Source: Minisyncoccota bacterium (GTDB lineage: Bacteria; Patescibacteriota; Minisyncoccia; Phycocordibacterales; UBA9973). From it: a DNA stretch of 35,744 bases. A program made the position numbers and the translations under genes. Location: positions 1 through 35,744 of the forward strand of contig JAENWX010000003.1 of assembly GCA_016649835.1 (NCBI GenBank), read 5' to 3'. Positions 5,191 to 17,920 of the stretch are shown here, one piece after another. Position 1 is the first letter of the stretch; every line of letters starts with the position of its first letter. The notes below the pieces were generated by a model that saw only the letters and a program-made list of their open reading frames with translations, did not search any database and was not told the DNA's origin.

Positions 5191-5226
5191 TTAAGTAGGA
5201 TTAAGTAGGATTAAGTAGGATTAAGT
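5191..5226. repeat. 10-bp tandem repeat (TTAAGTAGGA) x3.6
   Basis: Read directly from the sequence. Confidence 0.9.
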
Positions 5227-14334: not shown

Positions 14335-15396
14335 TTAAAACATTTGCTCTAAGGCCTTAGGGTTAATAGAATATTCATAAGCTATATCTAAGCTTATTTC
14401 ACCTCGTTGTACTAAGTCGATAAGACTTCTGTTCATGTCTATCATGCCTTCATGGGAAGAAGTTTCAATAACGGTATCAATCTCGTGGGTTCTTTTTTCG
14501 CGAATAAGATTGGCAACGGCTTTGTTGTTTATGAGAAGCTCATATGCTGGAATACGTCCACCAGAAATTCGAGGAATCAGACGCTGTGAAAATATACCTA
14601 GCAAACTAGAAGCCAATTGTAATCTGATTTGGCCTTGCTGTGATGCTGAGAATGAGTCAATAATACGGTCGATAGTTTGTGAAGCATTATTTGTATGAAG
14701 TGTTGATAAAACCAAGTGCCCTGTCTCTGCGGCAGTAACTGCAGCTGAAATAGTATCTGCATCACGCATTTCTCCAATAAGAAGAACGTTTGCATCTTCA
14801 CGAAAAGCGGCTTTTAATGCTCCAACGAAATCTTCAGTATCTACTCCTATTTCTCTTTGGTCAATAATAGACCTTTCTGGTTGGTATATAAATTCGATAG
14901 GGTCTTCTATGGTAATAATATGAGCTGCTGTTTCAGCATTTATCATATTTATCATAGTAGATAATGTTGTGGACTTACCTTGCCCCACTGGACCTACAAC
15001 CAAGAAAAATCCTTGTTTTTTTCTAGAAAAATCTTTAAGAATTAAAGGAAGGTTTAGCTCTTCAAAAGATTTAGGTTTTGGAACTAGACGAATAGCGATA
15101 CATATCATACCGCGTTGGAAAAATGCATTTCCGCGTAGTTGAACCTTGCCGTCGTTTAGATTTGCGGAAAAGTCGGAACTTTTTGTTTCTACAAATTTCT
15201 TGTATCTCTCGGGATTAATAAATGTACCTAAAATACCTAGCATGTCTGCATCGGTCATGACATTACTGTTTACAAGAAAAACAAGCTGTCCGTTTATTCT
15301 AATGGCGGGCTTGCGACCAACACCCAAGTGAAGGTCTGAACCATCTTGGTCTATTAGATTTTGTATTAAACCATGAACGAAATTTTTGTAATCCAT
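14335..15396 (-). CDS. pilT: Pilus retraction ATPase
   Basis: SDLHL, GPVGQGKSTT, TIEDPIE, LIGEMRD, AAETGHLVLSTLHT, AVANLIRE (AIRNLIRE-type motif). Confidence 0.93.
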   Translation of the reverse strand: MDYKNFVHGLIQNLIDQDGSDLHLGVGRKPAIRINGQLVFLVNSNVMTDADMLGILGTFINPERYKKFVETKSSDFSANLNDGKVQLRGNAFFQRGMICIAIRLVPKPKSFEELNLPLILKDFSRKKQGFFLVVGPVGQGKSTTLSTMINMINAETAAHIITIEDPIEFIYQPERSIIDQREIGVDTEDFVGALKAAFREDANVLLIGEMRDADTISAAVTAAETGHLVLSTLHTNNASQTIDRIIDSFSASQQGQIRLQLASSLLGIFSQRLIPRISGGRIPAYELLINNKAVANLIREKRTHEIDTVIETSSHEGMIDMNRSLIDLVQRGEISLDIAYEYSINPKALEQMF

Positions 15397-15402
15397 AAAA
15401 TA

Positions 15403-15801
15403 TTATTGTTGTTTATTTGAATCATTAATTATTTTAACTACTTTTTCTATAACTTCACTTGGTATGCAAGAGGCCTTTATAATATAACCCGCTGCTCCTA
15501 GTGCATTTGCGCGAGTAACATCTGATGGCTGACCTCTATTTGAAAGAAATATTGTTTTTGCTTTTGGTGCTAAATTTTCTTCTTTTATTTTCTCATATAA
15601 TTCAAACCCATCCATTTCGGGCATCATTATATCTAAGAGAATAATATCAGGAGAAAGCCCACCACGTAATTTTTCTAATGCTAAAGCTGAACCCAGAGAA
15701 GTAGAAACATCAAAATTTGATTTGATAAATTTTAATGCATACATATCAAGAAGGAAACTATCGTCGTCCACAATTAAAATGTTTTTCATTTCTGCTTCCA
15801 T
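15403..15801 (-). CDS. Single-domain response regulator (start revised from 16005)
   Basis: ILIVDDD, PDIILLDIMMPEMDG, FLSN, GAAGYIIK. The longer ORF only reads through the repeat array, and an extended -10 lies 7 nt before ATG 15801. Confidence 0.9.
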   Translation of the reverse strand: MEAEMKNILIVDDDSFLLDMYALKFIKSNFDVSTSLGSALALEKLRGGLSPDIILLDIMMPEMDGFELYEKIKEENLAPKAKTIFLSNRGQPSDVTRANALGAAGYIIKASCIPSEVIEKVVKIINDSNKQQ

Positions 15802-15810
15802 ATGTTTTAT

Positions 15811-16148
15811 TATAACAATAAGTGAGGAGCATATGCAAATAAAGTAATCTTTGATTTGCATAATGTCCGAACGCCGTTGTTCTATCGTAATCGATATAAC
15901 AACAAACGAGGAGCGTATGCAAATAAATACCAATTTATTTGCATCACGTCCGAGAGCCGTTGTTCTATCGTAATCGATATAACAATAAGTGAGGAGCATA
16001 AGCAAATGAATACCAATTTATTTGCTTAATGTCCGAACGCCATTGTTCTATAGTAATCTATATAACAACAAGTGAGGAGCATATGCAAATGAATTAATAT
16101 TTATTTGCATAATGTCCGAACGCCGTTGTTCTATCGTAATCGATATAA
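15811..16148 (+). repeat. Tandem array of four 83-84 bp structured units
   Basis: Units at 15811-15894, 15895-15977, 15978-16060 and 16061-16143, with nested stems showing compensatory substitutions. Confidence 0.95.
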
Positions 16149-16180
16149 TACAAATATAAATGTTTTGCTACGTATTAAAA

Positions 16181-17920
16181 CTATGTGTTATAAACTTCCT
16201 GTATTGGTATAAATCCTTTCGTGCTTTTCATTATGGCATCTTCGCGTAGAGTAAGCATTCCCTTTTGACGTGCCGAATTATAAATTACACTTTCTTCTGG
16301 ATTTTTAAGAATGATGCTTTGCATCTCCTTGTCTATTTTAAACATTTCAAAAAGAGCGATACGTCCACTAAGACCACTAGCACTTTCTGGAGAAGCTACA
16401 GCTTCAAAAATAGAATTGCCTAAATTTAATTTAGACCTATATACTTCTGGCAGGTCGGCAAATTGTTTGTCGAACATTTTTTGAGTTGATTCATCTATTG
16501 GAATTTCATGTTTTGAATTTGGATGAATTCTACGAGCCAAACGCTGAGCCATGCAAAGAATAAGAGTAGGGGCAATAAGATATGGGTCTATTCCCATATC
16601 TATAAGACGAGGAATAGCACCTATTGCGTTATTGGTGTGAAGAGTGGATAAAACTAAGTGACCAGTAAGAGCCGCCTGAATAGCTAGCTCTGCTGTTTCT
16701 TTATCGCGGATTTCTCCAACAAGAATAATATCTGGATCCTGACGAAGAATTGAACGCAGTCCAGAAGCGAATGTATAACCGATTTCAGGCATAACTTGTG
16801 ACTGATTAACTCCATCAATCTTGTATTCAACAGGGTCTTCTAGGGAAACAATATTTCTATCTTCTTTATTTAGTTCACCAAGCATAGAATATAGAGAAGT
16901 CGTCTTACCAGAACCCGTAGGACCTGTCATCAATATTAAACCATACGGTCTAGCTAATGCTTCACGAATAAGAACTAAATTTTCCTCTGATAAACCAATA
17001 TCATCAATTTTATGAATACCTCTTTGTGAGTCAAGAATACGCATCACAACCTTTTCTCCGAAATATGCGGGCATGGTAGATACACGAAAATCAATTTTAC
17101 GATTATCTATTTTAGCAGAAAATCCACCGTCTTGAGGTTTTCGTTTTTCGTCTAATCTAAGTTTTGAAAGAATTTTTATACGGGCTACCACTCCATTGAA
17201 TACATTTATAGGTAAGAAAAGTGAGGTATGAAGAATACCATCCACACGAAAACGAACTTTTACTTTATCTCCTGTGTTTTCAATGTGTATATCGGAAGCA
17301 AGTCCTTCCGTGGCACTACGCAATATAACCGCAACAATTTTAATAATCGGAGCATCTTCAACTATTTTTTCTTCTTCTCCTGGTTTTAGGTTATCTGATG
17401 TTTTGGCACTTGATTCAATAGTCACACCTGCGTCTGTTGCGCCTGCGATTTCTGTATCAAGTTCGTTTAAAGCTTGGTCAACTTCTTGAGTAGTATCCCC
17501 TTCATATCTTTCCATTAATTTATTAAAAACAGAAATTGAAATCAAATATAATTTGAAGGGCTTGTTTAGCTTGGATGTAATAAAAGTTAATGCATCTACT
17601 GCTTGAATATTTTCTGGGTCAACTATTCCAACTTCTAAAAAAGAATCTGTTAAGTCGATAGGCACAAAGTGGTATATTTTAGCCGCTCCGATTGGGATAA
17701 GTTGAAGAACTGAAACTGGTACACTTTTTGGATCAACATTTTTAACTGGAACACCAAAAATTTCACCTTTTATTTCAAGGATTTTTTCTTCATCAATATT
17801 AAAGTCGAGCAGCGCTTCATCAATGTTACCGTTGTATTTCTCTTCGGCAATTTTAGTAACTTCAGGCAGCTGGCTCTCTTTAAGAAGACCACGTTTTATA
17901 AGCTCTTCTGTAAGTACCAT
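16181..17920 (-). CDS. pilB: Pilus assembly ATPase (GspE/PilB)
   Basis: ASDIHIE, RFRVDG, PQDG, GPTGSGKTT, LEDPVE, LRQDPDIILVGEIRD, AALTGHLVLSTLHTN. Confidence 0.95.
   Translation of the reverse strand: MVLTEELIKRGLLKESQLPEVTKIAEEKYNGNIDEALLDFNIDEEKILEIKGEIFGVPVKNVDPKSVPVSVLQLIPIGAAKIYHFVPIDLTDSFLEVGIVDPENIQAVDALTFITSKLNKPFKLYLISISVFNKLMERYEGDTTQEVDQALNELDTEIAGATDAGVTIESSAKTSDNLKPGEEEKIVEDAPIIKIVAVILRSATEGLASDIHIENTGDKVKVRFRVDGILHTSLFLPINVFNGVVARIKILSKLRLDEKRKPQDGGFSAKIDNRKIDFRVSTMPAYFGEKVVMRILDSQRGIHKIDDIGLSEENLVLIREALARPYGLILMTGPTGSGKTTSLYSMLGELNKEDRNIVSLEDPVEYKIDGVNQSQVMPEIGYTFASGLRSILRQDPDIILVGEIRDKETAELAIQAALTGHLVLSTLHTNNAIGAIPRLIDMGIDPYLIAPTLILCMAQRLARRIHPNSKHEIPIDESTQKMFDKQFADLPEVYRSKLNLGNSIFEAVASPESASGLSGRIALFEMFKIDKEMQSIILKNPEESVIYNSARQKGMLTLREDAIMKSTKGFIPIQEVYNT

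Follow-up and report, generated by a model that had tools for sequence, protein, structure and literature searches.

A tandem hairpin repeat between two type IV pilus genes of a Patescibacteria genome is probably a gene-less mobile element that supplies a regulator promoter

The DNA analysed here, a stretch of 35,744 nucleotides (the window), carries a type IV pilus operon coding for PilM, a PilO-like protein, PilB, a regulator, a PilT-like ATPase, PilC, and three pilins. Two genes, both placed in this operon by Pfam, flank the feature under study: a pilB-type assembly ATPase gene (minus strand, 16181..17920; T2SSE 2.4e-120, plus MshEN) and a gene for a receiver-only response regulator (minus strand, 15403..15801; Response_reg 4.3e-19; 27 orthologues). 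The 379-nt spacer between them is filled by a tandem array at 15811-16148 (Tandem Repeats Finder: period 83, 4.1 copies, 85% matches, score 492), which is separated from the pilB stop codon by 32 nt (16149-16180). More specifically, four plus-strand units of 83-84 nt follow one another at spacings of 84, 83, and 83 nt. Unit 1 (15811..15894), the gene-proximal one, consists of TATAA and then the hairpin core; it belongs to the subtype called type A below and scores 72-113 bits with two covariance models. Unit 2 (15895..15977) carries the variant ACGAGG/CCGAGA, unit 3 (15978..16060) carries AAGC/GCTT, AACAAT/ATTGTT, and TATAG/CTATA, and unit 4 (16061..16143) scores 88.8 bits with a covariance model. 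A closing TATAA (16144..16148, plus strand) reads as the second copy of a duplicated target when the junctions are compared with empty sites. The units abut directly, with no spacers anywhere in 15811-16148, and a CRISPR array is thereby ruled out, as the earlier note on this DNA had held. Contigs from four DNA runs of one study cover the array piecewise, with zero differences and no visible joints; the same contigs also carry single units by other start codons, belonging to other loci or organisms. A search for sequencing runs that contain the array listed none of RNA. Another tandem repeat in the window, a perfect one (5191-5226; 3.6 copies of the 10-nt unit TTAAGTAGGA), occupies a different intergenic spacer.

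Each unit is predicted to fold from its 5' end into an outer 6-bp stem (AACAAY/RTTGTT), an AA/GNN internal loop, two pairs, a 2x2 loop of tandem G-A, GGA/UCC, a bulged G, and a long stem ATGCAAAT/ATTTGCAT enclosing a variable loop, followed by a separate 3' mini hairpin (TATCG-TAAT-CGATA). Repeat detection and folding thus bear out the four units and the fold that the earlier note had described, and all four of its compensatory changes are present in the alignment (in unit 3 ATGC/GCAT to AAGC/GCTT, together with AACAAT/ATTGTT and TATAG/CTATA; in unit 2 CAT/ATG to CGT/ACG). Its further claim that the structure is under selection is supported by covariation that persists as the alignment grows. 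In the 11 family copies of this genome, 95.7% of cells are paired (shuffled mean, 76.8%) and 19 of 23 pairs have changed on both sides, and in 85 copies (84 distinct) from 28 genomes the corresponding values are 93.1% (shuffled mean, 70.0%) and 22 of 23; none of 500 shuffles reached the covariation score in either set. Between the covarying stems lies an invariant core, GAGGAGC/GUCCGA, made up of the tandem G-A and the bulged G: all 11 copies in this genome have GAGGAGC on the 5' side and GTC(C/T)GA on the 3' side in common, and the stems vary around them.

Folding of the plus strand gave z-scores of -4.3 to -6.2 for the four units and a fifth copy, with 0 of 200 shuffles as good; the minus strand folds as well (-3.4 to -5.7). 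The polarity that had been noticed in the array, with G-U and G-A pairs working on the plus strand, held across the family. Because G-U cells on the plus strand exceed A-C cells, which are G-U on the other strand, by 74 to 24 (type A, 27 versus 10; type B, 47 versus 14), we take the plus strand to be the folded one, related copies not being independent, so that this asymmetry is a lean rather than a formal test. The invariant mismatches, moreover, are G-A pairs on the plus strand only.

Several known motifs were considered for this core and rejected. A K-turn is incompatible with the two bases beside the G-A pairs, which covary as Watson-Crick pairs and leave no room for a 3-nt bulge. The 5' end of the unit slightly resembles rrn boxA, and an antitermination box was rejected for a similar reason: since the bases in question covary as a stem, it is not their sequence that is kept. 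A Shine-Dalgarno sequence with a mini-ORF is contradicted by the ATG after GAGGAG, which varies in position, is absent from unit 3, and opens different frames, and is also counted against by a 16S tail without CCUCC (see below). Searching 15300-16700 against Rfam returned four matches, all far under the gathering threshold (best 21.7 versus 48 bits; E 1.1 to 9.7), and the other family copies gave only rRNA, tRNA, and sub-threshold chance rows; the array matches no Rfam family.

The earlier note had also proposed a covariance-model search for homologs, and homologs there are. A fifth copy, 90% identical by BLAST, lies directly before a pilin gene on contig C11, and a covariance model built from these five copies recovered six further, more diverged ones, giving 11 in this 735-kb genome; a model rebuilt from all 11 returned exactly those 11, at 74-92 bits. 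At E <= 0.01, 28 of 61 genomes of relatives, this one counted, contain the family, with 0 to 13 copies each (17 of 36 others of the genus and 10 of 24 from other families of the order). Even draws, taken at E <= 1e-4, gave 18 matching genomes out of 151 for the class and 2 out of 151 for the phylum, these two being the genome under study and another from its order; outside the class, no match was found in the phylum sample of 151 genomes. Weak copies are missed in these counts because filters are stricter in searches of more than 40 genomes. Tandem pairs of units also occur in four other genomes (G016, G026, G038, and G049).

The family comprises two subtypes. Type A units (32, including the four in the window) begin with TATAAC, measure ~90 nt, and have a TATNG-TAAT-CNATA hairpin at the other end; all of them have the core, and they are antisense to the flanking gene wherever that gene is readable. 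Type B copies begin with TTTNAC or TATTTCG..CTAG, are mainly sense-oriented, and occupy matching sites in several species: before 16S (this genome, G004, and G016), in the probable 23S leader (this genome, G035, and G032), in front of rpsL (G025, probably G023), and abutting the stop codon of a ~283-codon gene (five to six species). At one fixed site compared in six species (L021, L050, L052, L054, L035, and L058), compensatory changes persist in both hairpins, which selection for mobility alone does not explain and which hints at a host role in place.

The history of the regulator site can be read from 27 species of the genus. The pilB-to-regulator spacer is empty in 23 of them, measuring 21-168 nt and containing a native ATTATAAT (TATAAT) followed by ATG, and is filled in four, with one unit in G008, two each in G016 and G026, and four in this genome. 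G005, an empty-site species, is identical to this genome from TTATAAT to the ATG. Units are gained and lost singly, in keeping with the unit-by-unit addition that had been proposed from the window, and adjacent units have one TATAA in common. The second unit is the ACGAGG variant in this genome, G016, and G026; a two-unit array therefore predates these species, and this genome has gained two units beyond it. Comparison with the empty sites sets the ends of the element, in that the core begins CA(A/G)YAA and finishes ATC(G/T)A, with the outer-stem partner ~15 nt inside the 3' end. G008 has the pentamer TTATA on either flank of its unit, against a single TTATA at empty sites, representing a 5-bp duplication of the -10 box or else the target plus an identical element end. 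Evidence for a target duplication comes from two sites, TTATA here and at most TTTT in metS; the presence of TATAA on both sides makes a duplication inseparable from a target pentamer with an identical element end, and microhomology could also account for the pattern. In search of a second clean empty site, the pilin gene was compared with its closest homologues, which lie in G026; these are 57-59% identical, have TATAAT-N6-ATG promoters of their own, and show no comparable junction.

At the gene-side border, the array edge (minus strand, 15817 to 15809) reads TGTTATAAT, the extended -10 that the earlier note had pointed out; it is formed by the element edge together with the target and ends 7 nt ahead of the regulator ATG (15801). 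By eye, a -35-like TTGCAT (minus strand, 15833..15838) lies within the hairpin arm, 18 nt upstream of the -10. This arrangement recurs: TATAAT marks the edge of 23 out of 25 gene-side type A units, nearly always as the same extended -10, and in the other two a decayed unit comes next. An ATG-started frame of at least 50 codons begins 6-11 nt after the hexamer in 18 of these 23 copies; in three the frame starts 20-64 nt away, and two have none. The genes behind such edges are unrelated to one another (Nramp, an RNase J-like protein, MgtC, pyruvate kinase, a VirD4-like protein, glutaredoxin, prepilin peptidase, RelA/SpoT, RpiB, and a pilin). A promoter scanner listed TGCACA-17-TATAAT with TG at the C11 copy; it did not list the window's own array edge, where the -35 matches 3 of 6. 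These observations suggest that the type A edge acts as a portable promoter for leaderless mRNAs, and we consider a promoter role of the element likely. With only 7 nt between the -10 and the ATG, the element probably starts a leaderless mRNA for the regulator. The 3' tail of 16S rRNA (C56:30085-30125) lacks the CCUCC anti-Shine-Dalgarno core and, at the expected position of the conserved tail, reads GGAATAATTCAATTT, then GATCACTCATCTT, which fits Shine-Dalgarno-free translation and the many TATAAT-N6-9-ATG gene starts. In native promoters of the genus (the 23 empty spacers and one G026 pilin), a TATAAT-like hexamer likewise precedes the ATG by 5-9 nt, so leaderless starts look like the rule of the genus rather than a peculiarity of the element. 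The units may also act as terminators for pilB transcripts; a simple scanner listed no terminator in them.

One copy lies within an essential gene. In metS (L014:3125-4669, contig C35), the element forms an 84-nt, 28-codon, stop-free in-frame insertion after codon 5, found in 1 of the 30 orthologues listed, that of this genome, and it is a recent insertion. An in-frame TTG inside the metS element could, as an alternative start, restore an N-terminus of normal length.

Taken together, the array probably consists of a hairpin-forming mobile repeat without genes, typical of one Patescibacteria class, in four copies set head to tail, and it supplies the regulator promoter. We hold the mobile-repeat part of this reading, like the promoter part, with good confidence. 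The earlier note had treated the array as a feature of the pil operon, which did not hold: copies stand before unrelated genes, beside rRNA genes, and in metS, and the element is not specific to pilus genes. Of its two alternatives, single-stranded DNA hairpin elements added unit by unit come near to the best reading, and the antisense RNA array is very improbable (see below). The element inserted into the TATAA of a native -10 box before the regulator gene, probably duplicating TATAA, and its gene-side edge would have rebuilt the extended -10 with the -35-like TTGCAT, yielding a leaderless regulator mRNA started by the element. On the gene strand, each unit would present a long hairpin and then a U-rich stretch, a possible stop for pilB transcripts. 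Further units could be gained when an element inserts into the regenerated TATAA, or through unequal exchange. The fold would be retained because a mobilising enzyme recognises the single-stranded plus strand, with the tandem G-A and bulged-G core as its putative binding site. As far as the sequences go, single-stranded DNA seems the likelier form of the folded plus strand, over RNA; that this form is the one recognised by a transposition enzyme we put forward tentatively. The fullest version is more speculative and, taken whole, doubtful: the core hairpin would be the handle of a strand-specific mobilisation system that moves gene-less elements without terminal inverted repeats into AT-rich pentamers such as -10 boxes, the elements bringing a promoter for leaderless mRNAs, with some lineages having adopted copies into pre-rRNA, outside the 5' strand of the processing stem and by the mature 3' ends.

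The chief competing explanation gives the sense copies an RNA role. The plus-strand hairpin would then be a cis-acting signal for processing, stability, or insulation to which an RNase or RNA-binding protein of the host attaches; the copies that flank rRNA genes and the sense-oriented ones would be the working ones, and the promoter-type copies a spread-out offshoot. Evidence for it comes from the rRNA genes of this genome, where four copies, each sense-oriented, are found 15 nt upstream of 16S, 24 nt downstream of it, 16 nt downstream of 23S, and within the probable 23S leader. They hold a fixed place relative to the stretches that would form the processing stems: over 24 nt, C56:28469-28492, a stretch overlapping the 5' copy's mini hairpin, is perfectly complementary to C56:30311-30334, and a 17-nt complement links C7:14683-14699 with a stretch just past the 23S 3' copy. 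For both rRNAs, the stem has the 5' copy just beyond it and the 3' copy within it. Compensatory changes accompany the recurrence of the 16S 5' copy in G004 and G016 and of the 23S-leader copy in G035 and G032, and the excess of G-U over A-C on the plus strand fits this explanation as well. The rRNA-flanking copies are older. Against such a role, no model hit lies near full-length 16S in seven genomes of the genus (G009, G015, G017, G018, G021, G024, and G025), from which it follows that the element is not a general part of rRNA maturation and that the arrangement is lineage-specific. The type A units, moreover, keep the core in the antisense orientation, and the metS copy is a recent insertion. 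We regard this explanation as unlikely.

Two further rRNA loci of relatives deserve mention in their own right. In G003, the first 865 model positions of 16S are spread over 1,132 nt (C61:7271-8402), and a GIY-YIG match (C61:7370-7594, in a 95-codon frame) falls inside that span, which probably contains an rRNA insertion encoding a nuclease of the homing type; 236 nt upstream there is a family copy. In G054, from another family of the order, a weak family match (C5, L044:1501-1581; 38.7 bits) lies inside the 23S gene, in a stretch that fails to align with the 23S of the genome under study and may be an element-derived intervening sequence.

Another candidate is a hairpin element of the REP or IS200/IS605 kind that one of the genome's own Y1 (HUH) nucleases would mobilise in single-stranded DNA form. 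In its favour, there are no terminal inverted repeats, a hairpin lies near each end, the 5' flank is a specific pentamer, and the fold is strand-specific. This genome has five Y1_Tnp matches, and each high-copy genome (G016, G023, G026, G038, and G053) has at least one. Nonetheless, we judge this explanation improbable. The co-occurrence with HUH/Y1 transposases that the earlier note had proposed as a check proved weak, with Y1_Tnp in 24 of 28 genomes with the element versus 22 of 33 without; G036, 100% complete and carrying three copies, has zero Y1 matches; none of the 11 copies in this genome adjoins any of its five matches; and the only strong IS200-type matches (112 bits) were found in G009, an element-free genome. 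Other candidate mobilisers fared no better. GIY-YIG nucleases do not discriminate because 60 of 61 genomes have one (in G003 the element lies 335 nt from the match within the 16S gene). Reverse transcriptase was rejected, RVT_1 occurring in 13 of 28 genomes with the element versus 10 of 33 without and giving no match in the high-copy genomes G016, G026, G038, and G053. This genome has one reverse transcriptase and one tyrosine recombinase match, and no Y1, GIY-YIG, or reverse-transcriptase gene stands next to any of its copies. It has 0 matches to the DDE transposase families PF01609 and PF00665, and no full-length element with a gene between its arms was found in it.

Finally, an antisense RNA array, in which a plus-strand transcript opposite the pil mRNA is cut to ~83-nt RNAs that regulate pil genes, would suit the tandem layout and a plus strand that folds better and bears the G-U and G-A pairs, and is nevertheless very improbable, as neither the scanner nor reading of the unit borders revealed a plus-strand promoter consensus, none was seen at single copies either, single units elsewhere would depend on a promoter within an adjacent reading frame, the family occurs beyond pil genes, and the site is empty in 23 of 27 species having the same operon.

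CPR bacteria have tiny genomes with few regulators, and how they switch their genes is largely unmapped. If the mobile-repeat reading is true, a mobile unit carrying a complete leaderless promoter, and perhaps a stop signal for the preceding gene, would show how transcription units in CPR are rewired; in this genome it serves a regulator inside a type IV pilus operon. An irregular, strand-specific hairpin for which no partner enzyme is apparent likewise points to a transposition or processing activity yet to be found. For annotators, the covariance model offers a way to mask a repeat that otherwise resembles a novel non-coding RNA.

We found no description of the family in the literature searched. 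The 30-bp GC-rich hairpins described in the Ssn paper do not match the 83-nt element (PMC11893778). The present analysis contributes the invariant core, the asymmetry between strands, the junctions at empty sites, the copies in metS and by rRNA genes, and the restriction to one class.

Among known systems with repeated structured units, type III toxin-antitoxin loci of the ToxI type have a tandem RNA repeat directly upstream of a toxin gene; the array was rejected as one, its flanking genes being a pilB-type ATPase gene and a receiver-only regulator gene. Integron attC sites come with an integron integrase and stand at the 3' ends of cassettes; here there is one tyrosine recombinase match, and type A copies lie in promoters before conserved housekeeping genes. 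TIGR arrays, which are also tandem arrays of short structured units and have been reported from parasitic bacteria too, have two unpaired, non-covarying 9-nt spacers per unit and lie beside a Nop-domain gene (PMC12045711). In the present element, unlike in TIGR units (PMC12045711), the variable segments pair with each other, and the Nop domain (PF01798) has 0 matches in this genome; a TIGR-Tas array was rejected on these grounds.

Closer parallels exist among mobile repeats. The in-frame, stop-free copy in the essential gene metS behaves like the Rickettsia palindromic elements, a likeness of behaviour rather than homology: the present copies are mostly intergenic, only 1 of 11 lies in a reading frame, and both the sequence family and the host are unrelated. 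REP/REPIN sequences with their RAYT nucleases and the miniature elements derived from IS200/IS605 have conserved irregular hairpins, are read on one strand, and lack terminal inverted repeats, and the present element shares these traits together with a copy number that varies among relatives. It differs in being much longer (78 nt core), in flanking no cognate nuclease gene, and in its weak co-occurrence with Y1. An IS200/IS605-derived miniature inserts 3' of a fixed 4-5 nt target without duplicating it and has hairpins near both ends; both hairpins are present in our element, and TATAA stands on both sides. The Correia repeat-enclosed elements of Neisseria (CREE/NEMIS) are small, gene-less sequences at gene borders with terminal inverted repeats and a TA target duplication; they form hairpins in transcripts, and their ends create outward promoters for the neighbouring gene. 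The element described here departs from them in lacking terminal inverted repeats, with a long hairpin at its 5' end and a mini hairpin at its 3' end, in an apparent duplication of 4-5 nt rather than TA, in a strand-specific core with non-Watson-Crick pairs, and in its head-to-tail arrays, predicted leaderless promoter, and different host phylum. It resembles them in being gene-less and in residing at gene borders, and may also do so in duplicating an AT-rich target, in forming transcript hairpins, and in bringing an outward promoter to the neighbouring gene.
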